A stretch of DNA of 53,984 nt, taken from Candidatus Oleincola secundus. GTDB lineage: Bacteria > Atribacterota > Phoenicimicrobiia > Phoenicimicrobiales > Stramentimicrobiaceae. Of the stretch, positions 146 to 13,852 are shown in pieces. Where the stretch lies: the NCBI GenBank assembly GCA_018400815.1, contig JAGYLS010000004.1, positions 1 to 53,984 on the forward strand, given 5' to 3'. The translations under genes were made by a program, and so were the position numbers. Below the pieces are notes generated by a model. It saw only the letters and a program-made list of their open reading frames with translations, was not told where the DNA came from and did no database searches. Positions within the stretch are counted from its first letter, which is position 1. Each line of letters opens with the position of its first letter.

Positions 146-1903
146 GTGAGATATTCCGAAGATATATTAGACGAAATTAGAAATAGGTTGGATATTGTTG
201 AGGTAATTTCAGAATACGTTCCCTTGAAACAGAGCGGGAAAGGACATAAGGGATTATGTCCTTTCCATCAAGAAAAGACGCCCTCTTTTATGGTAGACAG
301 TGAAAGACAAATATTCCATTGTTTTGGGTGTGGAGAAGGTGGAAATATTTTTAGTTTTATTATGAAGATCGAGAAAGTAAATTTTCCGGAAGCAGTTAAG
401 ATGCTTGCTGAGAAAGCTGGTGTGCAGTTGCCTACTGTGAAAAACCAGGATGATAAAGTTTACCGTGAAAGAGATTTTATACTGCGTTTAAATGAAATTG
501 CAGCAAACTATTATCAAAGAAATTTATTTCAGGAACAGGGGAAAAATGCTTTCCTATATTTAGCAAAGCGTTACTTTAAAAAAGAAACAATCCAAAAATA
601 TCATCTTGGCTATGCGTTATCCGGATACGAACATCTTATTAGCTTGTTAGCACAAAAAAAGGTTAAAATACCAGATTTAATTAAGGCAGGACTAGCGGTA
701 AAAACTAAAAAAAGTGGTAATGTAATTGATTATTTTCGAAATAGAATCATCTTTCCAATTATGAATTTACAGGGAAGGATTATTGCCTTCGGAGGCAGGG
801 TATTGGATGATAACTTACCAAAATATATTAATTCTCCCGAAACCCCTGTTTACAGCAAAGGAAAACATCTATACGGTTTGTTTCAGGCCAAAAAGAGCAT
901 TCGACAAAAAAATCAGATTATTATTATGGAAGGATATACTGACGTTTTAATGGCTCATCAATATGGATTCGAAAATGCTGTTGCATCATTGGGGACCGCT
1001 CTAACAACTCAGCAAATTGATTTAATTAAAAGATATGCCGATGAGGTTATAATCGCTTTTGACTCTGATACAGCTGGTAAAAATGCCACTTTAAGAAGCC
1101 TTAATTTAGTAAAAAAGGTAGGAGTGAAAATCAGAATTATTTCTTTGCCCGCAGAAAGCGATCCAGCTGATGTTTTATTAAAAAAGGGAGACAAATATTT
1201 TAGCACTCTAATTAAAAAAGCCTTACCTTTAATTGATTATAAGCTAGAGGTTTTAATGCAACAATTCAATCCCGAAACCAGTGAGGGAAAAGTAGCGATT
1301 GTTCGGGAACTTTTTCAGGACCTAAATGGCATTAATAGTCAGTTGGAATTAGAGGCAGAAGTAAAGAAAATTGCTGAGAAGTTAGGGTTGGAAGAAGAAA
1401 GCATGCTTAAAGATTTAAGCCGTTTCCGAAAGGGTAATCGGACATTGCCAAATATCTCGGCTAAAAATGTTGCCGAAGAAACACATGTAAATGCAGAAAA
1501 GATATTAATTGGTAACATTTTACAAAATAGAGAAAATATCAAAAAAATATTTTCCGAATTGGAAGTTGATTATTTTACAGTTAAGGAACATCGGGAGATA
1601 TTATCTGTAATTAAGGGTTTTTATGAAAAAGGAGAAAAAATAGATATTCAGAAAATAATGGATAAACTTGATAATCAAAAAGAAATAAATTTGCTCTCAC
1701 AGATAATGATGAAAGATGTAGTTTCTTCGGATGAAGAAAGTTTTAAACGTTCTATCAATGCGATTAAGAAGTATAGACTTCAGTTAGAGTTAAAAAAAGT
1801 AAGCAGTAAAATTAAAGAAGAGGAAACTATAAAAAACCAGGTTACACCAGAACTTTTACAAGATTATCAGAACATTTTGCATAAAATAAAAACAATTGTA
1901 TAA
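146..1903 (+). CDS. dnaG: DNA primase
   Basis: CHC2 zinc finger (CPFH...CFGC), KYINSPET, TOPRIM EGYTD and DSDTAG; AAGGAG RBS before GTG start. Confidence 0.98.
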   Translation: MRYSEDILDEIRNRLDIVEVISEYVPLKQSGKGHKGLCPFHQEKTPSFMVDSERQIFHCFGCGEGGNIFSFIMKIEKVNFPEAVKMLAEKAGVQLPTVKNQDDKVYRERDFILRLNEIAANYYQRNLFQEQGKNAFLYLAKRYFKKETIQKYHLGYALSGYEHLISLLAQKKVKIPDLIKAGLAVKTKKSGNVIDYFRNRIIFPIMNLQGRIIAFGGRVLDDNLPKYINSPETPVYSKGKHLYGLFQAKKSIRQKNQIIIMEGYTDVLMAHQYGFENAVASLGTALTTQQIDLIKRYADEVIIAFDSDTAGKNATLRSLNLVKKVGVKIRIISLPAESDPADVLLKKGDKYFSTLIKKALPLIDYKLEVLMQQFNPETSEGKVAIVRELFQDLNGINSQLELEAEVKKIAEKLGLEEESMLKDLSRFRKGNRTLPNISAKNVAEETHVNAEKILIGNILQNRENIKKIFSELEVDYFTVKEHREILSVIKGFYEKGEKIDIQKIMDKLDNQKEINLLSQIMMKDVVSSDEESFKRSINAIKKYRLQLELKKVSSKIKEEETIKNQVTPELLQDYQNILHKIKTIV

Positions 1904-1960
1904 TAATGTTTTGGAGATAAGCATAGTATTTAATTTGTATATGAAGAGGGGCTGTTTTGT

Positions 1961-3070
1961 ATGGCAAAGAAAAAGAAAATAGAGGGTTTAATTAAGAAAG
2001 GAAAACAAAAGAACTATCTTACATTTCAGGAAATAGAAAATTACCTGGAGGATGAAATACTTAATATCAATAAGATTGAGGACCTGTATGACGCCCTTAA
2101 CAAATCTGGAGTTGATGTAATTGATGAGGAAGAAAAGCTAGAGGAAGAGGAAGCTGAGCCGAAAGGCAAAGCAAAAAAAACAGGAATAGATGTTATTTCT
2201 AAAAAAGATTTACCAACAGAAATAATTATTGGTAAAGGCTTTGAATTAGATGATCCGGTAAAGATGTATTTGAAAGAGATTGGGCAAATAAGATTATTAA
2301 CCGCGGAGGAAGAAATAGATTTGGCCAAGCGTATGGAAGCAGGGGATTTAGAAGCTAAAAGAATTTTAGTACAATCAAATTTAAGATTGGTTGTTAGTAT
2401 TGCAAAACGGTATGTAGGAAGAGGAATGCTTTTCTTGGATTTAATCCAGGAAGGGAATATGGGCTTAATCCGTGCGGTAGAAAAGTTTGATTATCGACGG
2501 GGATATAAGTTCAGTACTTATGCTACCTGGTGGATACGACAGGCAATTACCCGTGCCATTGCCGATCAGGCCAGAACTATTCGGGTTCCTGTTCACATGG
2601 TTGAAACAATCAATAAATTAGTGCGTGTATCAAGATATCTGTTACAAGAGCTAGGCAGAGACCCAACCATTGAAGAAATTGCTGAAAGGATGGAACTTCC
2701 TGTGGAAAAGATCAAGGGAATCATTAAAACAGCACAGGAACCGGTTTCCCTGGAAAGCCCGATTGGCAAAGAAGATGATAGTCATCTGGGAGATTTTATA
2801 GAAGATGAAGATTCCCCTGCACCTCCCAAGATAGCTTCTCATACTTTATTGAAGGAGCAGCTTGATGGAGTATTAAAAACCTTAACTCAACGAGAGAAAC
2901 GGGTTCTGGAATTGAGATTTGGGATTAGTGATGGACATCCGCATACTCTCGAAGAGGTTGGCAGAGAATTTGGTGTTACCCGGGAAAGAATTAGACAGAT
3001 TGAAGCCAAGGCACTTAGAAAATTAAGACATCCAAGTCGCAGCAAAAAACTACGGGATTATCTCGATTAG
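1961..3070 (+). CDS. rpoD: Primary sigma factor SigA/RpoD (short type)
   Basis: [43 protein letters not shown]; follows dnaG. Confidence 0.98.
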
Positions 3071-3144
3071 ATTATTGAAATGTTTAAAAAATAAATATTT
3101 CTTTTGATAAAAACAGTTAAGTAATAAAAATTCTATGATTTTTG

Positions 3145-3173
3145 TTGACCTTTTCAGCATTTTAGATTATAAT
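3145..3173 (+). promoter_or_regulatory. Sigma-70 promoter of tRNA-Asn
   Basis: TTGACC-N17-TATAAT, 14 nt before the tRNA. Confidence 0.85.
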
Positions 3174-3187
3174 AAACTTTGCGTTAT

Positions 3188-3262
3188 TCCTCGGTAGCTC
3201 AACGGTGGAGCATCCGGCTGTTAACCGGAGGGTTGTAGGTTCGAATCCTACCCGGGGAGCCA
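3188..3262 (+). tRNA. tRNA-Asn(GTT)
   Basis: Cloverleaf TCCTCGG...CTGTTAA...GGTTCGAATCC...GGGGAGCCA with encoded CCA. Confidence 0.98.
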
Positions 3263-3272
3263 GACATTCCAG

Positions 3273-3310
3273 TAGGCAGAATTTCCTTTATGGAGGTTCT
3301 GCCTATTTTT
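3273..3310 (+). terminator. Intrinsic terminator after tRNA-Asn
   Basis: TAGGCAGAATTTCC / GGAGGTTCTGCCTA hairpin followed by a T-run. Confidence 0.8.
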
Positions 3311-3368
3311 ATGCCACAAACTTTCTAATTGAGGAGAGTATTTTGTCCATTTCCTCACCTAAACAGGA

Positions 3369-3441
3369 GTTGCGAAAATCGTTCTGTCTGGGAAGCTTAC
3401 CAATCCTGGTCCTCCAGCATCATACTGATAGGCCTTTATTT
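3369..3441 (+). repeat. att-like repeat copy 1 (with 17-bp upstream arm)
   Basis: GTTGCGAAAATCGTTCT identical to 9881-9897, then gggaagcttaccaatcctggtcctccagcatcatactgatagg aligning with copies 2-4. Confidence 0.75.
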
Positions 3442-3450
3442 GTCCCTTAT

Positions 3451-3480
3451 TTGACTTTCTACTCCAATATTATGTATAGT
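3451..3480 (+). promoter_or_regulatory. Putative promoter of the 3544 ORF
   Basis: TTGACT-N18-TATAGT. Confidence 0.5.
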
Positions 3481-3543
3481 AATAACAAGTTAAACTCAAA
3501 AATACATGAGTTTATTCAATCTTTATAGAAAGGAGAAATATAA

Positions 3544-4152
3544 ATGGCTGATAATAAAGTAATAGGAAAAACAATGTTTTATATTGTAGTAGCCGTATTA
3601 GCAGTAGCGTTAATATGGGTGTTTAGTATTGCCAATACTGCCAATAAGATGGCCACTGAGAACGCTGATGCAGTACGAGTACCGGAATACAAGGTTTATC
3701 ATGTCGCAGGAGGACCTGGACGTTTTGCCTCAGAATTTGAGGGAGCTAGCGAAGGATTAGAAAATGTAAATCAGGGAGACTATCTGTGGAGTTCGATTAT
3801 CGTACAAAATGTTGGAGAAGAGGATGATGAGGATATTGAAATAAATATTACAGCAGCAATACCCATTGAAAAAGTTTATTTTGCAACTACAGACAGATTT
3901 GTTGGTGAAGTGGTAAGTCAGGAAGAAAATGCCAATGAAGTGACAATAAATATGGATGGATTTGATATAAATGAAAACATAATGGTGTTTATACCTATGT
4001 TACCGACGGGATACGAAAAACCATTTGACAAGCTTGACAATGAGGTATGGGGCAAGGAGTATCAGTCTTACTTAGAGAAAGTAACGATAGAATCTGATAT
4101 GAATGAAGTTACCACCATATATGCACCGGGTTATGCCGCTTTGTATGAGTAA
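3544..4152 (+). CDS. Hypothetical single-pass membrane-anchored acidic protein
   Basis: AAGGAG RBS; N-terminal hydrophobic helix; acidic, beta-rich-looking remainder; family not recognised. Confidence 0.85.
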   Translation: MADNKVIGKTMFYIVVAVLAVALIWVFSIANTANKMATENADAVRVPEYKVYHVAGGPGRFASEFEGASEGLENVNQGDYLWSSIIVQNVGEEDDEDIEINITAAIPIEKVYFATTDRFVGEVVSQEENANEVTINMDGFDINENIMVFIPMLPTGYEKPFDKLDNEVWGKEYQSYLEKVTIESDMNEVTTIYAPGYAALYE

Positions 4153-4213
4153 TATCTCGGTAAGATGAACCACATATGGGTAATATTCCTGAATGTGTGA
4201 ATTCTACTAAAGT

Positions 4214-4247
4214 CTGGTCGGTGAAAGAAAAGCCTTTCATCGGCTGG
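4214..4247 (+). terminator. Hairpin after the 3544 ORF
   Basis: GGTCGGTGAAAG / CTTTCATCGGCT stem; weak T-tail. Confidence 0.45.
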
Positions 4248-4644
4248 TCTTAAGGAACATAAATTATTTTATTATAGAATCTCTTCTTACGCTTCATTAT
4301 TTCATTATGATGTATTAATTATATTATTTTTCTTGATACAGTTTTTAAATTTGAAATATTAAGATATTATTAATTCCAATTAGATAATAATCGTAGTAGT
4401 AATAAAACGAAAACTGGATATAACAATTTAGTCAATCAGGACAGTTGTCCTTAATTTTTTTAGTCCATAATATAATAAGAATAAAAAGCAAATATATAAT
4501 GAAAGTTTTAAGGCAAATTGTAATTACGGCTTAAATTGTTAATATATAACAATTTCAATAAGATATTATTATTTTTCCATGTTTTAACCTATGCATATTA
4601 ATTTTAATTTTATCCTAAATTATTAAGCTTTCAGACACCAATCC

Positions 4645-4696
4645 GGGAAGCCAGCAAATTACAGCCCTTCAGCATCTTTGCTGAGGGATGTTTTTT
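4645..4696 (+). repeat. att-like repeat copy 2 (tRNA-3'-like end plus terminator)
   Basis: gggaagccagcaaattacagcccttcagcatctttgctgagggatgtttttt. Confidence 0.8.
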
Positions 4697-4881
4697 ATTA
4701 ATTTATCAGAAATAGGCCAAATTGAAAAATTTCTGGATAAATACAAAACGGTACAGTAAAATAACATAAAAATAATATATATGAAGAACCAGTTCAACAA
4801 TAAATATTCATTAAAATATATAACAATTAATCTCAATAATAGTTAATCTACACCAATATAAGTACGTTTTCGGAGGTCAAT

Positions 4882-4977
4882 ATGGGAAGCCAACAAAGGC
4901 ATGGCAAATTATCAAAGATATTGCAAGCAGTTTTAGATGAAAAGGGAGATTTCCAAAGAATGGACTGCCTGTGGTAA
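4882..4977 (+). CDS. Putative 31-aa small protein (not in ORF track)
   Basis: GGAGG 5 nt before ATG; MGSQQRHGKLSKILQAVLDEKGDFQRMDCLW. Confidence 0.4.
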   Translation: MGSQQRHGKLSKILQAVLDEKGDFQRMDCLW

Positions 4978-5037
4978 AATTAAAGAATAAACTATTAACA
5001 AAGAATATTATCCAACTAGAAGGGAGTTTTATTTAAA

Positions 5038-5208
5038 ATGCAAAAACATCAATGCAGAAAATGTAACAAAACATGGTACGGATGGGCAAGAAACAATATC
5101 TGTCCACACTGTGGTGGTGAATTAGTTCAAATAGAAAGAAACGATCATACCAAGAATGAAGATGTGAACAAGGAAACCAGGACTGAAATATCCAAGCCTA
5201 GATTTTAA
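5038..5208 (+). CDS. 56-aa zinc-ribbon small protein (not in ORF track)
   Basis: AAGGGAG RBS; MQKHQCRKCNKTWYGWARNNICPHCGGELVQIERNDHTKNEDVNKETRTEISKPRF with CxxC...CPxCGG. Confidence 0.8.
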   Translation: MQKHQCRKCNKTWYGWARNNICPHCGGELVQIERNDHTKNEDVNKETRTEISKPRF

Positions 5209-5255
5209 TCACAACCAACCCTGTTTTCCTGAACACGAAAGAAAGGAAAAAGGTA

Positions 5256-7148
5256 ATGGAGAAAAATTGCGGTGAGATCAAATTCGTAAAAGAAATAAAA
5301 ACACGGGATTCCAAGGAATTTTTCCAGACTCTATTTGATTATGCCCCGGATCCATATTACATCACTGATCTGGAAGGTAATTTTGTTGATGGCAATAAAG
5401 CTACTGAGAGGGTTACCGGATACCAAAAAAAAGAATTAACAGGTAAAAGCTTCTTTCAGCTGCATGTTCTACCTGCCGACGAACTCCCCAAAGCCCAACA
5501 GGCACTTGCGAGAAACCAACAGGGGCTTCCTACCGGCCCGGATGAATTTATCCTGAAACGAAAAGACAATAAGAAAATAACAGTAGAGATTTTCACTTAC
5601 CCGATAAAAATAGAAGATAAACTGCATGTCCTGGCAATCGCCCGGGATATCACCCAGCGCAAACAATCCGAACAAAGAACAAACCATCTCATTCAGATCA
5701 TTCGCGCCATCCGCAATATAAATCATCTTATTATCAGGGAAAAAGACCGGGATATCCTGATCCAAAAAGTATGTAATCTTTTAGTGGAACCCAATGGTTA
5801 CCACAATGCCTGGATTGTCCTGCTGGATGAAGATAAAAAATATCTAACCTCCGCTGAAGCAGGTTATGGTCCGGCCTTTGATCCCATGAGAACACAGCTG
5901 AAAAATGGTGATTGGCCAAGATGTGTCCGGGAAGTCTTACAGCGAAAAGAAATCCTGATTACAGATAATCCCAAAAGTACCTGTTATAACTGTCCTCTTT
6001 CACATTATCTCCAAAACCGCAGTGCCTATACCATCAGCCTCAGACAGAACAATATCCTCTATGGAATATTTTCGGCCTGTATCCCGGAATCCTTTGCAGA
6101 AGACAAAGAGGAACAAGCTCTCTTTAAAGAGACAGCTGAAGATATTGCCCTTTCCCTTTACAGTGTTAAGACAGAAAAAGCCCGCAGACAGGCAGTAGAG
6201 TCATTACGAAAAAGTGATGAAAGATTCCGAGTGGCACTAAAAAATTCCCCTATCATAGTCTGGAGTCAGGATAAAGAGCTACGCTATAACTGGATATACA
6301 ATCCCAATCCCGCATTCAATCCTGAAGAAGTTCTGGGCAAGAAAGATGAGAAAATGTTTCCTGCTGATGATGCCAGGGCTTTGACGGAGATAAAACAAAA
6401 AGTATTAAAAAGCGGCAAAGGCAGCAGGGAAGAGGTCAGGATGACAGTTAAGGGAACCCCCTTTTTCTATCAGCTGGTTACCGAACCCTTAAGAGACGCA
6501 CAGGGTAATCTAACAGGTATAACCTGTGCCTCTGTTGATATTACCGAATTCAGGGGAATCCAGCAAAAACTGGAAAAATCTTTTGATACCACCATTGAAA
6601 CCATGTCCAAAATTGTTGAGACCCGGGACCCTTACACTTCCGGACATCAGTCCCGTGTTAGTCAGCTGGCTACACGAATTGCTTTAGAGTTAAACTTGTC
6701 CCGGGAAAAGATAAAAGGAATAAGGATTGCTGCTTTAATCCATGATATCGGTAAAATCGCTATTCCCTCGGAGATTTTGACTAATCCTGGCAAGCTCGCA
6801 TTGTGAGTTTAGCTATGTAAAAAGAGTCATTCCCAAAAAGGTTATGATATTGTAAAGGGTATAAATTTTCCATACCAGATTGCTCCAATAATTTTACAGC
6901 ATCATGAAAGAAACGACGGTTCTGGCTATCCTAAAGGGCTGAAGGGTGATGAAATTTTATTGGAGGCCAAAATTATTGGTGTTGCAGATGTAGTTGAGGC
7001 CATGTCCTCACATCGGCCCTACCGGGAAGCCTTGGGAATTGATGTAGCCCTGGAGGAAATTTCCAAAAATAAAGGTATTCTCTATGAACCAGAAGTGGCA
7101 GATGCTTGTATAAAATTATTTAAAGAGAAAGGATTTAAATTTGAATAA
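5256..7148 (+). pseudogene. PAS-GAF-PAS-HD-GYP cyclic-dinucleotide phosphodiesterase, interrupted near 6795-6825
   Basis: RDPYTSGH, IHDIGK, then QHHERNDGSGYP and HRPYR in the same frame after two in-frame stops caused by a compensating indel pair; may be a sequencing error. Confidence 0.85.
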
Positions 7149-7175
7149 GATAAAAGAAAAATTCAAAGGAAATAA

Positions 7176-9074
7176 ATGATGAATATTTTACCGTTTCTCC
7201 ATTTTTTTACCTTCCTGGTTTATATTTCTTTGTTGTTTTTTATTCTATGGAACGATGCAAAACCCTTGCTTAACAGAGTTTGTGCTGCCTTTCTGGGCTG
7301 CTTTGCCCTGTGGAGTTTTGCTTTGATTTTTTTATATATTCCAGATACCTTAAAAGATACGGCGATACTATTTAACAAGATTGCCTCTATAGGGTGGATC
7401 GGGTTTGCCGGTTTCTTTTTATGGTTTGCACTTATTTTCGCAGAAAAGAAAAAAATATTAAAAACAAAATTTTTCTATGCGTTCTCTTTTCTCTGCCTCT
7501 CCTGTTTATCTATACACAGTGGTCTGATTTATTAACAGCAGATTATATTCAACACCCTTGGGGATGGGGAAAACTCTGGGCAGACTCGATTTGGACCTAT
7601 CTTTTTTATTTCTATTATATTTCATTTACACTAATAGGGCTTTATCTGATTTACTTTTTTGGGAAAAAGACCAAAAAACTCATAAAGAAAAAACAGGCGA
7701 TGCTAATATTTACTGCTGCCCTGGTTTCTCTTATACTTTCTACTTTGATAGAAGTAATATTGCCACTGTTGAATATTTTCACGATACCCTCTTTGGGTAA
7801 TATAGTCACCCTTATCTGGGCAGGAGGATTGGTTTATGCCATAGTTAAGTACGAATTTATGATTATTACCCCGGCTACAGCTGCTGAAAACATCTCTCCA
7901 CCATGGCTGATTCCTTAATATTACTGGACAGGGAAGGAAATATTGACACTGTCAATGAAGCCCTGTTGAATTTATCCGGATACCGCAAGAATGAATTAAC
8001 AGGTAAATCAGTGGAGATTTTTTTCCTGGAGAAAGATTTCAAAGATACCTTATTGGAAAAAGCCGACGAAAGCAACCATCAGAAATTATGAGCTTGATTT
8101 TCAAACAAAACAAGAAGAATGTCCCGGTCCTTTTTTCCAGCTCCCCCATCATTAAGCAAGGGATTATAGCCGGTATTGTCTGTATTATCAAAGGATATCA
8201 CCGAACGTAAAAAGCAGAACAAGCTTTACAAAAAAGCCAGCAGGAATTTGCCAGCCTCTTTCAGAGCAATCCGGAGGCAACTATTTATCTGGATAAAGGG
8301 CTTCTCAGAATATTGGTACCTTTAGCGAACTTTTCAGTTATGCCCTTGGGGGATAAAGGGAAACCTAGATAGTGGTTGATCAGCCCCAGATCAAATGAAA
8401 GGTCCGAAAAGGTGGCAAAAGCTATTAAGGGAGATTATATCAGGATTGAGACTGTCAGAAAGAAGAAAGACGGCACCCTGTTTCCGGTTCTTCTTTCAGC
8501 CTCACCTTTGTATATAGAGGGTAAATATCAGGGACTTATCGGGATATACCAGGATATCAGCAAAAGAAAAGAAATGGAAGAAAAAATAGCAAAACTGGTC
8601 CGGATTGATACCTTGACTGGTTGTTACAGCCGTGGATATGGAATTGAGCTGCTAGACAGACAGATAAAATTATCCCAGCGTAACAAATCCCCTCTATTGC
8701 TGGCTTTTCTGGATATTGATTACTTTAAGACCATCAATGATACCTTTGGCCATAATGAGGGAGACCAGGTCCTGAAAGAAGTAGTCGAGTTATTTAAATC
8801 TTCCCTAAGAGAAGTTGATATTATCTGTCGAATGGGTGGAGATGAATTTCTCCTGGCCATCCCGGATAGTTCTTTACAGGAAGTACCTTTAATCAGAGAT
8901 AGGCTGCAAAAGAATTTGACTCAACTGAATAAACAGATTGACAGAGATTACACTATAAGTTTGAGTATGGGATTTTCTGAATATGTACCGGACAAACCAA
9001 AGACTATGGATGAGCTTATTGCTATTGCTGACCAGGAAATGTATAAAGAGAAGGAAAAATACAAAGAAAAATGA
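7176..9074 (+). pseudogene. Membrane (HisKA_7TM-like)-PAS-PAS-GGDEF diguanylate cyclase, multiply frameshifted
   Basis: Hydrophobic ORF pieces 7176-7918, PAS pieces 7903-8570, [19 protein letters not shown], RxxD I-site (REVD) and GGDEF. Confidence 0.85.
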
Positions 9075-9123
9075 ATATCTTTTTTAAATATTTTACACTA
9101 AAATTTCTAAACCTGTCCACAAA

Positions 9124-9173
9124 GGGAGCCAGCCAATCTAAGCCCCTCAGCATCCAGCCGAGGGACTTTTTTT
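9124..9173 (+). repeat. att-like repeat copy 3 (tRNA-3' end plus terminator)
   Basis: GGGAGCCAG identical to the tRNA-Asn 3' end plus next base, then ccaatctaagcccctcagcatccagccgagggacttttttt. Confidence 0.8.
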
Positions 9174-9258
9174 ACTACGCTCAAACTTTAATAAACCAGT
9201 ATCCAAGTAAAGAGAATCTTAATTGTTTTGAGAGTAACAAAAGCTTGACTATTCGCAT

Positions 9259-9620
9259 CTACAATTTAGAAATTGGATAGGGCATTTCAGCACCTTCCGG
9301 AATTGTATCAATATATTTCTTACGAAAACCAGGGTCCTGCATACGACAAGTCTGTTTACATGAACAATGGGTAGGATGCTATAAAATCTTCTCCCACTAA
9401 TTTTTAAGGCTTTTCTCTTGTCACATAGGTAGCGATACCAGCCAGAAGCCCGGCATCTAAGGTATTCTTTACACCTTTCTGTAAAGACTGCCAGGAACCT
9501 TTAAAAATTCTAAGACTGTCATGTTCAGATGGATGAACTGAATCTGAGCTGATATGAACACCGAAGAATCCGGACTCATTCAGGGACTGTGCTCTTTGTG
9601 CAGTCCAAGGTCCTATACTT
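9259..9620 (-). pseudogene. Radical SAM/SPASM-like gene remnant
   Basis: Hand translation: AQSLNESGFFGVHISSDSVHPSEHDSLRIFKGSWQSLQKGVKNTLDAGLLAGIATYVTRE and CKQTCRMQDPGFRKKYIDTIPEGAEMPYPISKL*; no CxxxCxxC left. Confidence 0.65.
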
Positions 9621-9880
9621 AAAAAGAATCAGTCGTTGCCAATTCTTCATAATTCCTATATAATTAAAAAAATTACTGGTGTTCAATTTAATCAAATATC
9701 CAGTAAAGTTTATGTGCTAGATCAAAAATAAACAAACCCGTCTATTTATTTTTTTACTGTAGTGAAAGATTCCATAAACTTTCCTTTGGATATCTACTTG
9801 AGTCCCAATTATAGATATATATTTAATATTATTTATTCCAATATTTTGCAAATCTGATTTGATTCATTATTCCTGTAGTG

Positions 9881-9946
9881 GTTGCGAAAATCGTTCTATC
9901 CTAGGAAGTTTGCCCATTTTAGCTCTTCAGCGTTAAGCTGAGAGAG
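9881..9946 (+). repeat. att-like repeat copy 4 (with 17-bp upstream arm)
   Basis: GTTGCGAAAATCGTTCT-atcct-aggaagtttgcccattttagctcttcagcgttaagctgagag. Confidence 0.75.
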
Positions 9947-10209
9947 TATGGTATTTACTCTTATGCCGTGATATGATTGATATTAAATTCAAGTTTATTT
10001 GATTTATTTAACCATAAAAAACCACCTTTTTTTGAAGGTGGTACTGGTTAAATAAAATGGTTTTACCAGATAGACAAAGCTATACTAACTGAAATATTTT
10101 TTACCTTAAATCCTAAAAATAGAGGGAAAAATAGCATAAAAAGGCTCTTTTAAAAGATAGCCGAGAGATCAAGAGAAAAGTGCAGAGAAAAACTGTCTAA
10201 TAAAAACTT

Positions 10210-10228
10210 AAGCCTCTTTTAGAGGCTT
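10210..10228 (-). terminator. Hairpin downstream of ftsK
   Basis: AAGCCTCT-ttt-AGAGGCTT inverted repeat. Confidence 0.5.
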
Positions 10229-10236
10229 CTTAAGGC

Positions 10237-10253
10237 CACCCGCTATGCGGGTG
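10237..10253. repeat. REP-like GC-rich palindrome, copy 2
   Basis: CACCCGC-tat-GCGGGTG followed by CG, as in copy 1. Confidence 0.7.
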
Positions 10254-10267
10254 CGATATTTACACAA

Positions 10268-12481
10268 TCATTCATTTTCTTCCTGAGTATCATAATTATT
10301 TTTACGTGATAAATAATCATCCTTAGAAAGTAATATCTTTCTTGGGTTCCGACCATCATAAGGCCCAACCATTCCCTTTTTTTCCATAATATCAATCAAG
10401 CGGGCAGCCCTTGTATAACCTATTCTTAACTTTCTTTGCAATATTGATATTGAGGCCTGATTATTATTGATAATGGTGTCAACGGCATCTTCAAATAATT
10501 CATCTTCTTCTTCCTCATTTTCTTCTTCCATTAAGCTTTCCTGGGTTTTTTTATGACTAAGGATATTTTCCTGGTAATCAGGGGCAGGTCCGTTGTCTTC
10601 TAAAAAGGAAACAATATTTTTAATCTCTTTTTCGGAGACAAAAGTGCCCTGGGCACGTATTGGTTTAGATACATTTATAGGTGAGAACAACATGTCACCA
10701 TTTCCCAATAATTTTTCAGCTCCGTTAACATCCAAGATGGTCCTTGAATCTACCTGTGTTGAAACTGCAAAAGCAATACGTGATGGGAAATTTATCTTTA
10801 TCGAACCGGTAATAATATCAACAGAAGGTCTCTGGGTAGCAATAATTAAATGAATTCCGGTAGCTCTGGTCATTTGTGCTAATCTACATAATGCTTCTTC
10901 TACCTTGACTGGCGAAGATAGCATCAAATCTGCCAATTCGTCAATAATAATAACAATATATGGTAAAGGTTTTTCGTCGGTTTTTATGCTTTTTATATAT
11001 TCATGGTATCCTTGTAAATTACGGACACCTACTTCGGCGAATATTTTAAATCGGTTTTCCATTTCAGAAATAGCCCAGTTCAATACTTTGTCAACTTTTT
11101 TTGTATTGGTGATAATCGGAATAATCAAATGAGGTATTCCATTATAAACATTTAATTCAACCCTCTTTGGGTCAACCATCACAAACCTTATCATATCAGG
11201 TCCAAAACGATATATTAAACTTAAAATAATAGAATTAAGACATACACTTTTCCCGGAACCGGTAGAACCAGCAATAAGTAAATGCGGTAAATTAACTAAA
11301 TCTGCGATGATATTCTTTCCCCCAATATCTTTCCCTAATGCAATAGGTAAAATAAGTGAATTATTTTGATAGTCCTTTGATTCAATAATTTCCCTTAGTA
11401 ATACCGTATCTTTTTCTCTATTAGGCACTTCAATACCAATGGCATTTTTGCCTGGAATTGGTGCTTCAATTCTCACAGAAGCTGCAGCAAAGGCCAAAGC
11501 AATATCATTACTGAGATTGGTTATTTTTGACACTTTAACACCTGGTGCCGGCTGAATTTCATATCTTGTAACTGTCGGACCCTGTGTCGCCCCAATTACA
11601 TCTCCCTGGATACCAAAATTATCTAATGTTTTTTGCAACAAAGTGATATTATTCTTTATTTTTTCTTGACCTTTTGTTCTATGCTCTTTTTTTACCTCAT
11701 TTAATAAGTTAGTAGGTGGTATTATATATATGTTATCTTTGGCTTTACCATTCATATTATTCTTATTTTTAGCAGAGAAATCAATCCTCCCCTGTATCGC
11801 CGGCTCACTGTTTTTTTTCGCTTTTGAAGGTAATTTTTTGCTAAAAATAGGTTCTGACCTTTTTTTTGGTTCATCTTGCTTATCTGAATAAATACTAATA
11901 GTTTTTTCTCTATTTGGCCTTTCTATTATTTTTCGTTTTTTCATTATGCCAGAAAATATTTTACTGAATATCTGATAAATTTTACTGAAGAATAAACTAA
12001 TGGCATAAAGAAAAGAAACATCCGTTATAAATAGAATGGCAATTAGACCAAGAGCAATAAGGAAAAGATATGCACCAGTTAAACCAAAATAATTATTAAG
12101 ATATCTTGCTAGATAGAATCCATATAATCCGCCACCTGCTCCATCTCTTGCCAGTAAATAGGAATGATCAATAAAGATTAATTTTAGATGAATGAAAACC
12201 AGGATTATTAATACTAAAGTTGTAATCCCGAAAATTTTATTATAATAATTTTGAAAACGGTAATTAAATAAAAGGCTTAGCCCTTCTACTATTAAGAATA
12301 AGAAAATGAAATATTTACCAAGTCCTATTAATTTATTGATATAATTTGTAATAACATTGATAAATGTAAAGCTGCTTGCAGGAAATAATATGGCAAATAA
12401 ATAATAGACAGCAATTGCAATGATGATGATACCTAAAACTCTTTTTCTTATTGAGTAATGCTTTTTAATATTTTTTGCCAT
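10268..12481 (-). CDS. ftsK: DNA translocase FtsK/SpoIIIE
   Basis: N-terminal TM helices, Walker A GSTGSGKS, IIIDELADLM, gamma domain LQRKLRIGYTRAARL; start moved to MAKNIKK (RBS, avoids uppP overlap). Confidence 0.96.
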   Translation of the reverse strand: MAKNIKKHYSIRKRVLGIIIIAIAVYYLFAILFPASSFTFINVITNYINKLIGLGKYFIFLFLIVEGLSLLFNYRFQNYYNKIFGITTLVLIILVFIHLKLIFIDHSYLLARDGAGGGLYGFYLARYLNNYFGLTGAYLFLIALGLIAILFITDVSFLYAISLFFSKIYQIFSKIFSGIMKKRKIIERPNREKTISIYSDKQDEPKKRSEPIFSKKLPSKAKKNSEPAIQGRIDFSAKNKNNMNGKAKDNIYIIPPTNLLNEVKKEHRTKGQEKIKNNITLLQKTLDNFGIQGDVIGATQGPTVTRYEIQPAPGVKVSKITNLSNDIALAFAAASVRIEAPIPGKNAIGIEVPNREKDTVLLREIIESKDYQNNSLILPIALGKDIGGKNIIADLVNLPHLLIAGSTGSGKSVCLNSIILSLIYRFGPDMIRFVMVDPKRVELNVYNGIPHLIIPIITNTKKVDKVLNWAISEMENRFKIFAEVGVRNLQGYHEYIKSIKTDEKPLPYIVIIIDELADLMLSSPVKVEEALCRLAQMTRATGIHLIIATQRPSVDIITGSIKINFPSRIAFAVSTQVDSRTILDVNGAEKLLGNGDMLFSPINVSKPIRAQGTFVSEKEIKNIVSFLEDNGPAPDYQENILSHKKTQESLMEEENEEEEDELFEDAVDTIINNNQASISILQRKLRIGYTRAARLIDIMEKKGMVGPYDGRNPRKILLSKDDYLSRKNNYDTQEENE

Positions 12482-12498
12482 CTTCCCCACCTTTAGTA

Positions 12499-13317
12499 TT
12501 AAGTTAAATAAATAAAAATTACCGCGATTCCAATGATCCATAGATAATAACTGAATAATCTTAATCTAAATTTTGTTAGCATTTTTATAAAAAATATCAT
12601 AGCCCAATAACCTGATAAAAAAGCAGTTATTCCAGAAATGAGCAACAAATTAATATCAATATCAAGATGAAATATCTCTTTAACTTTAAATAACGAAGCA
12701 CCTATGATAATGGGAACTGACAAAATAAAAGAGTATTTTGCCGCAAATTCACGATCTATTTTTCTGCTAAGAGCCATCATTATAGTAAAACCTGAACGGG
12801 ATATGCCAGGAATAATCGCTAGTGCCTGCGCAAAACCAATAAAGATTGCATCAACACCATTTATCTCTTTTATTTTTTTGCTACCTTGTATCAAATATTT
12901 ATCTGTCAAAAAAAGGCAAAATCCGGTTATAATGAGCATTAAAGAAGTGACGACTGGATTCCCAAAAAGTTTTTCGAACGTAGTATTGAAATAATAGCCA
13001 ATTAGTGCTCCCGGTATCGTGCTTATAACCAATAACCAGGCAAATTTGCATTGCAGATCATCTCGAATGTGATTAAGTAATTTTTTGGGACTATATATTT
13101 TATTAAGGCTTTTACAGAAGGCGAGAAAAATTTCTTTTATATCATTTCTAAACAGAAAAATAACAGCCAATAATGTGCCAAAATGTACAAATGTTTCAAA
13201 GGCAACACCTGGTATTTGTAATCCTAGAAGGTACTGGGCAATTACCAGATGACCAGAACTGCTTACTGGAAGAAATTCGGTTAACCCTTGAATTAAACCT
13301 AAAATAACATAGTGCAT
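12499..13317 (-). CDS. uppP: Undecaprenyl-diphosphatase
   Basis: QGLTEFLPVSSSGH and PGISRSG motifs. Confidence 0.96.
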   Translation of the reverse strand: MHYVILGLIQGLTEFLPVSSSGHLVIAQYLLGLQIPGVAFETFVHFGTLLAVIFLFRNDIKEIFLAFCKSLNKIYSPKKLLNHIRDDLQCKFAWLLVISTIPGALIGYYFNTTFEKLFGNPVVTSLMLIITGFCLFLTDKYLIQGSKKIKEINGVDAIFIGFAQALAIIPGISRSGFTIMMALSRKIDREFAAKYSFILSVPIIIGASLFKVKEIFHLDIDINLLLISGITAFLSGYWAMIFFIKMLTKFRLRLFSYYLWIIGIAVIFIYLT

Positions 13318-13372
13318 TGGCTTCCTTACTTTTATTTTCCTCTGAATGATATTTCTGTATGATTGTTATCTC

Positions 13373-13852
13373 TTATTGATTAGTTTTAATTCCAGTATGT
13401 CCAAAACCACCAATGCCCCGCTTGGTATTGTCCAATTCTTTTGTTTCTATTAAAACTGGTTGAAATGTTCTTTGAATCACTAGCTGTGCAATGCGGTCTC
13501 CTCGATTTACAATAAATTTTTCTTTACCATGATTGATTAGAATTATCTTGATCACACCACGGTAATCTGAATCGATAGTACCTGGCGTATTGAGGACAGT
13601 AATACCATAACGATAGGCTAATCCACTCCTAGGTCTAACCTGGGCTTCAAAGCCTATCGGCAAGGCTATTTTAATGCCTGTTGAGACTAATTTTATCTCA
13701 CCTTTATCAATTTCAACAGCATCTTCTTCGGCAGAAAATAGATCAACGCCGGAAGCATGTTGACTGGCTGCTTTTGGTAAAGGTAAATCATCACAACCTT
13801 TATCCTTTTCTATTTTAACTTCTATTTTTTCTATTTCTTTATTCATCATCAA
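13373..13852 (-). CDS. dut: dUTP diphosphatase
   Basis: RPRSGLA, GTIDSDYRG, RGIGGFGHTG. Confidence 0.97.
   Translation of the reverse strand: MMMNKEIEKIEVKIEKDKGCDDLPLPKAASQHASGVDLFSAEEDAVEIDKGEIKLVSTGIKIALPIGFEAQVRPRSGLAYRYGITVLNTPGTIDSDYRGVIKIILINHGKEKFIVNRGDRIAQLVIQRTFQPVLIETKELDNTKRGIGGFGHTGIKTNQ

Follow-up and report, generated by a model that had tools for sequence, protein, structure and literature searches.

Repeats resembling the tRNA-Asn 3' end delimit co-oriented gene modules in an order of Atribacterota and may be recombination sites

A 53,984-nt stretch of Candidatus Oleincola secundus DNA (GenBank assembly GCA_018400815.1, contig JAGYLS010000004.1; the whole stretch is hereafter called the window) holds a tRNA-Asn gene followed by four same-strand repeats that cut the downstream DNA into units. 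These repeats belong to a family homologous to the tRNA-Asn end and trailer, which forms arrays among co-oriented genes in related Atribacterota genomes. The modules lying between the repeats are reused with different neighbours, several of their homology ends are located at the tRNA-like core of the repeat, and no integrase is linked to the arrays. We tentatively propose that the repeats are recombination sites derived from the tRNA 3' end, that modules are exchanged at or near the core by an enzyme acting in trans, and that the window holds an old, eroded array; this explanation is quite possible, although somewhat short of probable.

The assembly containing the window (G000; in the labels used here, G denotes genomes, C contigs, L fetched loci, and F clusters or modules of open reading frames [ORFs]) comprises 2,021,837 nt in 213 contigs with 33.8% G+C. 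The main relative set consisted of 41 related genomes, and f1 and f2 denote two families within a single order of Atribacterota. Every genome is a fragmented metagenome bin, and related genomes are non-independent samples. An nhmmer profile of the four window copies was run over the whole 2.02-Mb assembly. A covariance model, R1 (82 positions, 8-pair hairpin), was trained on the four window copies and a copy on contig C101 of G000; these five training copies are the decayed ones of their own genome, and their R1 scores are by construction.

The four repeats, first seen in a preliminary description as stretches of about 45 nt, proved to be real and about 82 nt long, all on the + strand. They formed the top direct-repeat family of a repeat scan (D1, 68-100% identity over 31 nt) and reached E = 1.8e-12 to 3.6e-11 in the nhmmer search, in which one strong match (E 4.1e-8) and one weak match (E 0.0011) were also found on C101. 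Beyond these six copies, the next match in the assembly had an E value of only 0.6. Therefore, the repeats are far above chance and not generic in G000, and with four of the six copies inside the window they are not the genome-wide repetitive extragenic palindrome (REP) or terminator that the preliminary description had named as fatal to its proposal. No other + strand R1 match at E <= 1 was found in the window, including its seven other tRNA genes and its own tRNA-Asn. In Rfam 15, only the tRNA itself passed, and no family covered any repeat at E <= 5.

From 5' to 3', a copy consists of an arm of about 30 nt, a core, a 9-11-nt linker (N-CAAT-CC-like) and a hairpin, with a T run in copies 2 and 3. 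The core, GGGRAGCC, is the tRNA-Asn acceptor 3' end: every copy contains GGGRAG(C/T)(C/T), the tRNA ends in GGGGAGCC, and its 3' terminal bases GGGGAGCCAG are the core common to the repeats. The tRNA-like start noticed earlier is thus borne out, and its homology is backed by the tRNA-Asn ends of relatives. The continuation into a hairpin (AGCCCTTCAGC - loop - GCTGAGGGGCT, of the YCAGC...GCTGA type) was likewise seen in all copies. Copy 4 retains its stem pairing through C-G to U-A changes and copy 1 has the most broken stem, both as previously described. The arms of copies 1 and 4 share GTTGCGAAAATCGTTCT (repeat D16, 95%), the longer, type A arm, which is also present in the C101 copy.

The fold z-scores of the copies ranged from -3.13 to +0.40, with consistent support for the terminator hairpin alone, and folds of the five G000 copies contained a 9-11-bp terminator hairpin and a short arm stem only. 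Among 96 aligned family members, 89% of the hairpin cells were paired, changes on both sides were observed in 8 of 8 pairs, and 0 of 500 shuffles reached the observed covariation score; the alignment was fitted to R1, which favours this pairing result. The G+C-rich stem and T run on the sense strand 3' of a gene are those predicted of an intrinsic terminator, copies 1 and 4 being without the T run, and copy 2 was called terminator-like by a terminator scan.

R1 also matched the tRNA-Asn end and trailer itself, right after rpoD, in 15 genomes by coordinates (G002, G005, G006, G008, G009, G010, G013, G014, G017, G018, G022, G024, G027, G029, and G038). The overlap was confirmed by ARAGORN in L050, L057, and L058, and was seen in the sequence of L205. 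Because R1 hits that gene end in relatives, the repeat is homologous to tRNA-Asn from its T-arm through the acceptor 3' strand to the native trailer and terminator, and its hairpin part is the native tRNA-Asn trailer in relatives. The arms differ from plain tRNA sequence and can be grouped into a small number of conserved classes (class A, CATACAAAAGTTGCGAAAATCGTTCTGTCT; class B, CCCTTAAAAGTTCTGAAAGCGTCCAATAG; B2, a variant of B; and the short GCTTTCAGACACCAATCC of copy 2). These classes align to the T-arm with an enlarged loop, and intermediate arm forms occur at L051:77 and in the stretch preceding L056:6735. An inverted repeat, CTGTCT / AGACA, around the 8-bp core was present only in some type A copies of f2.

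The hairpin variants track the host lineage, 27 of 41 being of the TCAG type in f1 and 47 of 53 of the TTTGG type in f2, and the arm classes occur in both families. Lineage-bound hairpins combined with shared arm classes are compatible with hybrid sites, in which an element arm is joined to a host trailer, and equally with concerted evolution. Some f2-type hairpins were found in two f1 genomes, G003 (3 of 4 repeats) and G007 (3 of 12 repeats), and G003, which is 68% complete and 4% contaminated, also carries a 19-aa ORF otherwise seen in f2; these features could reflect transfer between families or bin contamination.

In the window, the tRNA-Asn is followed by a trailer (hairpin 2) that differs from hairpin 1, the tRNA-Asn trailer of most relatives. 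The order of tRNA then hairpin 2 also occurs in G001, of the same genus, and in G025, and hairpin 2 is found in relatives after the core of other repeat copies as well. The sequence on the left of the core at the window tRNA is tRNA and that on the right is hairpin 2. The native-type linker and hairpin 1 appear only downstream of the copy 1 arm and core, where the linker CCAATCC matches the native f1 trailer. This arrangement speaks for exchange at the core.

Among the 41 relatives, R1 returned 215 matches in 34 genomes, at most 20 per genome, so that the search with a model built from the copies, which the preliminary description had suggested, extended the family well beyond the two additional copies on C101. 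In a phylum-wide scan of 86 genomes, with a stricter threshold and additional filters, matches were found in 16 of 21 f1 and 22 of 30 f2 genomes, and in 0 of 34 genomes of five other families. Same-strand arrays with copies 0.8-8 kb apart were observed, as in G024:C83 (6 copies), G008:C14 (7), G007:C82 (5), G040:C140 (4), and G027:C92 (5). For the 94 copies in the fetched loci, an upstream ORF of at least 80 aa was present in 83 cases, and the nearest one was co-oriented in 72 of these; for the nearest downstream ORF the figure was 73 of 83, with a median of 183.5 nt from the upstream stop codon to the repeat start. The units, mostly of one to three genes, carry mainly accessory cargo: the 147 ORFs of 18 related loci included hydrolases, FMN reductase, HicA, helix-turn-helix (HTH) plus Gp49-like, GNAT, methyltransferases, TspO, OmpA, PspC/LiaF, beta-helix and CBM96 proteins, and one partial Y1 transposase.

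The idea of an array anchored at a tRNA holds for the window and not in general. A repeat lies next to a tRNA gene in the window, G008:C21, G009:C4, G027:C12, and G022:C93, and most other arrays are on short contigs. No tRNA gene was present in the 31 kb examined of G008:C14, which carries seven copies, and the G000:C101 copy is likewise not at a tRNA. Therefore, the arrays are not restricted to the tRNA locus. On G008:C14 (L043, 15433-16927), a second sigma-70 gene (338 aa, without region 1.1) and a small basic ORF precede a type A repeat, an order that recalls the rpoD-tRNA-Asn locus minus the tRNA.

A pattern scan of a species-level genome collection gave at least 128 loci. R1 confirmed 24 among the 80 matches listed, 14 of which were titled Atribacterota, Atribacteria or Candidatus Sediminicultor. 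The other ten (L073, L080, L088, L091, L103, L105, L106, L109, L135, and L136) were in bins labelled Promethearchaeota, Nanoarchaeota, Brocadiaceae, Eubacteriales, Actinomycetes or unnamed bacterium, nine of them on contigs of 0.5-4.7 kb; these contigs are probably mis-binned Atribacterota sequence.

The clustering of ORFs revealed the same modules with differing neighbours across genomes. The FMN reductase module (F6) comes after the beta-helix module (F3) in G007 (F3-site-F6-site) and before it in G008 (site-F6-(degenerate site)-F3-site), and F6 stands alone between two sites in G024. F24 is placed before F3 in G003 and between other units in G024, and the contexts of F14, F20, and F13 also vary. 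The break points were taken from BLAST ends, which conserved repeat sequence can move by several bases, and were placed on the R1 model, where the core occupies about positions 31-40. The homology of the F6 pair (84% identity) begins at +35/+31 of the upstream site, that of the OmpA locus (F5) begins at +29/+31, and that of F24 ends at +39/+39 of the downstream site. The left ends of F6 and F5 and the right end of F24 bracket a crossover inside the core, and of the six informative homology ends four are no more than a few bases away from it. The F23-22 and F21 pairs are syntenic across whole sites and thus uninformative on break points.

In the mechanism that we propose, the four window repeats would be the decayed remains of att-like sites that belong to a lineage-specific family and descend from the tRNA-Asn 3' end. 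Such a site would consist of a T-arm-like arm, an 8-10-nt core, GGGGAGCC(AG), from the tRNA 3' acceptor strand, a linker, and a terminator hairpin corresponding to the native trailer. A module would comprise the linker and hairpin, the cargo gene or genes, and the arm, and modules would be joined head to tail and exchanged by crossover in or beside the core, with the tRNA-Asn gene end serving as one entry site. Since the modules are without a recombinase, the enzyme would have to act in trans. We infer that the exchange is site-specific rather than homologous, that a trans-acting enzyme performs it, and that it is presently active in some lineages. The window array appears to be old, given its decayed cores and two hairpins, its broken cargo frames, and that no excision product was seen.

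Several observations weigh against this proposal. Two of the six informative ends are off the core (+12/+11 for F15-16 and +67/+72 for F3), a further end, on the right of F6 (+25), depends on a truncated copy, and several left ends lie near a gene start, not at a site; in between-family pairs the latter may be due to divergence of the intergenic DNA. Synteny between genera is seen at some loci, such as Usp-repeat-OmpA, which indicates that many copies are old and stable. Moreover, homologous recombination between repeats of 80-200 nt would also break inside the repeat. The same-genus genome G001 shares with the window rpoD, the tRNA and hairpin 2 up to 3312, and ftsK with the adjoining sequence down to about 10,000, with 93% identity; it is unlike the window between these positions, and its two contigs stop about 150 nt further. 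Its break points enclose the array to within about 50 nt, and they lie that far outside copies 1 and 4, not on the cores. The earlier expectation of shuffling exactly at the repeats is supported by the reshuffled modules with ends at the core and not supported by G001.

The contigs of four public runs (X1-X4, from two studies) were aligned to window positions 2000-11500. Copy 3 was bridged in X2 and X3 and copy 4 in X1, in the window arrangement. Neither a clean excision nor a circle junction, the latter suggested as a check in the preliminary description, was found in these contigs; a single contig of X4 gave one weak joint, 3324 -> 9125, with 30 nt on the shorter side. Since the contigs are short, the result neither supports nor counters excision. 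The low-cover parts in X3 and X4 (4219-4852 and 9291-9924) were left uninterpreted.

A recombinase that could act in trans, as the preliminary description had supposed, was not identified. The Pfam search found no integrase in 3188-9955 and no Phage_integrase domain among the ORFs of 146-13852, and neither an integrase nor a resolvase was among the 147 ORFs of the 18 related loci; the earlier view that the repeats delimit co-oriented units without an integrase is in agreement with this. Xer-like tyrosine recombinases (Pfam Phage_integrase) were represented by about two strong genes of about 300 aa per genome, on none of the array contigs, and the total of tyrosine recombinase genes is no more than two or three in most genomes. 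Y1 (IS200-like) domains, including a class of 260-330 aa, occur in 39 of the 41 genomes, with just three fragments near a copy. A link to Y1 transposases was considered and rejected: no Y1 gene is flanked by repeats, and the three Y1 genes of G000 are all off the repeat-bearing contigs. A recombinase gene beside the motif was found once among the loci examined, as a tyrosine-integrase remnant on G027:C37. There, DprA is followed by a small island (L195, 2309-6848) that consists, in order, of a methylase with an MjaI-type endonuclease, the integrase remnant, and two cargo genes (ornithine cyclodeaminase and an EamA transporter). Its end is formed by a 52-nt partial copy of tRNA-Asn, perfect in sequence and with the trailer, at a distance of 2.2 kb from the remnant. 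This classical attR-like scar together with the remnant shows that integrase-borne elements do target tRNA-Asn in the clade.

The same island supports a somewhat unlikely but live alternative, namely classical accretion and decay, in which integrase-bearing elements were serially inserted into tRNA-Asn and later lost their integrases, leaving cargo between partial-tRNA scars; the preliminary description had offered such eroded nested islands as the plainer explanation. This model was put forward for the tRNA-flanked islands of Prochlorococcus, the tycheposons (bioRxiv 10.1101/2020.12.28.424599), which, in the available text of that report, hold scattered partial tRNAs and fragmented integrases. 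The restriction-modification pair beside the G027:C37 scar, the broken cargo frames of the window, and the variable gene content directly after tRNA-Asn among the genera examined (G009, G008, G027, and G022) are also in line with it. Nevertheless, it would have to account for the single integrase remnant beside a repeat, against none in the 147 array ORFs and few tyrosine recombinases per genome, and for units that are mostly of one to three genes. Furthermore, the arms are a few conserved non-tRNA classes found in two families, one of them with an antisense micro-ORF, rather than decayed tRNA, and for one array at least, 31 kb of examined sequence contained no tRNA gene. The site was on no viral contig: the pattern GGGGAGCC-N(8-13)-AGCCCTTYRGC gave 4 loci in viral contigs, of which 0 were confirmed by R1 and none was with a tRNA, and no phage attP was found in the collection.

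As far as the available text on tycheposons describes them, they are similar to the Atribacterota arrays in lying next to a tRNA, in having partial-tRNA direct repeats between units, and in their integrase-less cargo of variable content. They differ in carrying a tyrosine recombinase and hallmark genes and in their plain partial-tRNA scars, whereas the Atribacterota arrays have one integrase remnant only, sites with conserved non-tRNA arms and a trailer hairpin, units of one to three genes, and positions also off tRNA genes. With no integrase and with conserved non-tRNA arms, the system is not a plain tycheposon-type island. In Dehalococcoides, tandem islands are reported to be site-specifically mobilised at the tmRNA gene ssrA (PMC3146451). 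These islands resemble our arrays in serial integration at the 3' end of one small-RNA gene with repeated copies of that end; the target here is tRNA-Asn, and the units are without an accompanying integrase. In our searches of the literature on Atribacteria, including a term search within PMC10826368, no description of the repeat was found.

A second alternative, which we regard as improbable, is a terminator-type intergenic repeat, composed of arm, core, hairpin, T run and perhaps a promoter after them, that is kept for ending upstream transcription and spread by gene conversion, homologous recombination or insertion in the manner of miniature inverted-repeat transposable elements (MITEs). 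Module shuffling would then be a by-product of homologous recombination, and the tRNA likeness would arise since a tRNA gene precedes one copy. The strong co-orientation with flanking genes and the median distance after the stop codon speak for it, as do the maintained hairpin, with the pairing seen in the model-fitted alignment, the T runs of copies 2 and 3, the lineage-specific hairpin variants expected of concerted evolution, and break points that are not limited to one position. Against it, the copies are clustered, four of the six in G000 lying within 6.8 kb, and the conservation extends for 30-100 nt ahead of the hairpin, more than a terminator requires. The arms resemble the tRNA T-arm, with the two intermediates described above, three homology ends coincide with the 8-10-nt core, and Y1 genes are widespread yet represented near a copy by fragments only. 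A REP-type element (bacterial interspersed mosaic element with its REP-associated tyrosine transposase) or a MITE also does not match, with six copies in G000, four of them in the window, and clustered copies in relatives.

Integron arrays consist of small gene units that are co-oriented and joined head to tail; a site of about 60-150 nt closes each unit, and the recombinase is encoded outside the units. Their attC site is an imperfect inverted repeat over the whole site, with R''/L'' and L'/R' boxes. The Atribacterota arrays share with them co-oriented cassettes, each with a site and reused in different orders, and a cargo of toxin-antitoxin genes, acetyltransferases, hydrolases and unknowns. 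Unlike integrons, they have no IntI, a core that is the tRNA acceptor end, entry at the end of a tRNA gene, and an intrinsic-terminator-like hairpin in each site. The integron integrase model TIGR02249 found 0 of 41 genomes above its 265-bit cut-off (best, 133.6 bits), and the folds of the five G000 copies gave no pairing between the two ends of the site. Since these IntI and attC features are lacking, the system is not an integron, and the integron-like label used earlier fails in that strict sense. Cis-mobilizable elements, which arise by accretion at att sites, and Xer-dependent modules (IMEX and pdif) are site-flanked units without a recombinase of their own, moved by an enzyme encoded elsewhere, and a dif-like site has XerC and XerD arms around a 6-bp spacer. 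Our units are likewise without a recombinase, but no 28-bp dif-like site with XerC/XerD arms was recognised by eye in the repeat, and all copies are direct repeats.

A more far-reaching version of our proposal would be an integron-like gene capture that one Atribacterota order built from other parts. Cassette-end sites of about 150-230 nt would mimic tRNA-Asn in its T-arm, acceptor end and trailer, cassettes would enter primarily at the end of the tRNA-Asn gene, crossover would take place in the 8-10-nt core, and one chromosomal enzyme acting in trans would serve all cassettes, with the Xer-like pair or the 260-330-aa Y1 (HUH) proteins as candidates and an antisense 19-aa ORF as part of the system. 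In this complete form we consider it unlikely. If the site-specific exchange is true, it would be a second, independently evolved route to integron-like cassette arrays, in a poorly known and mostly uncultured sediment phylum. It would also explain accessory-gene variation in small genomes without plasmids, prophages or linked integrases, and the system offers a testable substrate of two sites and a short list of candidate enzymes. If the rival explanations hold, this is still a clean case of a tRNA trailer turned into a lineage-wide intergenic repeat. In either case, the repeats break assemblies, and repeat-bearing short contigs in bins with labels of unrelated phyla are relevant to the quality of metagenome-assembled genomes.

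The antisense ORF lies in the 60 nt upstream of type A arms, on the opposite strand. It encodes 19 aa (consensus MSDETEKVYHKLEEVIGIC), and its start codon abuts the arm. Over 14 copies, its entropy by codon position was 0.72 / 0.46 / 1.07, which is coding-like; the adjoining arm and core gave 0.58 / 0.62 / 0.69, without such a period. A six-frame search returned 55 matches in 11 of the 41 genomes, 54 of them in open frames of 14-85 aa, and the sole match in a long frame (158 aa) was the weakest (E 1.07). The ORF is therefore not the beginning of a longer gene such as an integrase. Examples, which are without a Shine-Dalgarno box, are L209:100-156 (+), L049, L055, L196, L204, and L211. The type A extension moves with the upstream cargo, FMN reductase, in G007, G008, and G024, and this fits a module made of trailer, cargo, extension and arm.

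In type B arms, an AAGGGG/AAGGAG box precedes an antisense ORF of 15 aa, MT(A/I/S)ENIRLNQLILQY (MTAENIRLNQLILQY), with ATT in place of ATG in many copies; L054:5130-5213, L046:4985-5066, and L055:3827-3909 are examples. Both the 19-aa and the 15-aa ORFs are lost in the window. In many f2 copies, such as L050:10030, L205:7595, and L204:115, the 35 nt past the T run are conserved (TTTATAAATTATTTTCAYAGAAAAAGAAGGATTT). Read by eye, this stretch and the 3' half of the hairpin look like TTGCTG-N17-TATAAA, a possible outward promoter. A short GTGAAGCCTGACCC-like stretch was seen just upstream of several copies (L194:2471-2530, L203:620-678 and 3660-3716, and L195:2400-2440), in one case where a truncated Y1 transposase gene ends. 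This stretch may mark the terminus of a different repeat family.

The features of the window interval are listed in Table 1. The locus runs from dnaG through rpoD and the tRNA-Asn, which is the only Asn tRNA among the 46 tRNAs of G000, to the repeat interval and then to ftsK on the opposite strand. The sites cut it into four units, 3263-3359, 3443-4615, 4698-9093, and 9176-9871, the first of which is hairpin 2 plus the decayed arm extension, a stretch that corresponds to the antisense 19-aa ORF of relatives and has lost the start codon. In module 3, the PAS-GAF-PAS-HD-GYP gene is broken near 6806, and the 7TM-PAS-GGDEF gene, whose stop codon lies 20 nt before the start of copy 3, is spread over several frames. 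Module 4 has an open stretch of 74 aa on the - strand (9407-9628), and the radical SAM remnant once read there remained below the Pfam cut-off (best E 0.15, 12.7 bits).

Table 1. Features of the tRNA-Asn repeat interval, in window coordinates; the R1 scores of the repeat copies, all used in training, are by construction
Feature	Position	Strand	Basis
tRNA-Asn (GTT)	3188..3262	+	ARAGORN; Rfam tRNA 68.2 bits
Hairpin 2 (AGGCAGAA...TTCTGCCT + T run), terminator-like tRNA trailer	3274..3311	+	Sequence
Decayed upstream extension of type A arm	3313..3359	+	Alignment with G000:C101 and related copies; ORF scan
Repeat copy 1: type A arm, core GGGAAGCT, decayed hairpin, without T run	3360..3442	+	R1 84.1 bits; nhmmer E 3.6e-11; fold z = 0.40
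Module 2 cargo: 202-aa ORF, no Pfam family	3544..4152	+	ORF list; Pfam
Repeat copy 2: short arm GCTTTCAGACACCAATCC, core GGGAAGCC, intact 9-bp hairpin, T run	4616..4697	+	R1 66.7 bits; fold z = -3.13
Module 3 cargo: 56-aa zinc-ribbon ORF, PAS-GAF-PAS-HD-GYP gene, 7TM-PAS-GGDEF gene	5038..9074	+	Pfam; six-frame reading
Repeat copy 3: B-like arm, core GGGAGCC, hairpin with one A.C mismatch, T run	9094..9175	+	R1 81.6 bits; sequence
Module 4: without intact ORF	9176..9871	.	Six-frame reading; Pfam
Repeat copy 4: type A arm, core AGGAAGTT, hairpin with compensatory changes, without T run	9872..9955	+	R1 73.6 bits; fold z = -2.46

The contigs of the other runs showed single-base indels at 7894 and 8190 and differing sequence after 6772. 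The breaks in the HD-GYP and GGDEF genes (6772-6830, 7156, 7894, and 8190) coincide with variants in these runs, and an extra A after 7894 was present in all of the X1 and X2 depth. Part of the gene damage may therefore be assembly error or strain difference, and an intact form of both genes may exist in the population.

Another repeat, of about 265 nt, is located at 9994-10261, between copy 4 and the 3' end of ftsK. Copies of 90% identity are present at G000:C152:4747-5011 and G000:C13:32589-32841, with more in G007 and G013. The summed contig depth rose from about 2-60 immediately before this repeat to 390-870 over it, and loose contig ends were numerous at 10227 and 10262. The repeat holds two terminator-like hairpins on the - strand.

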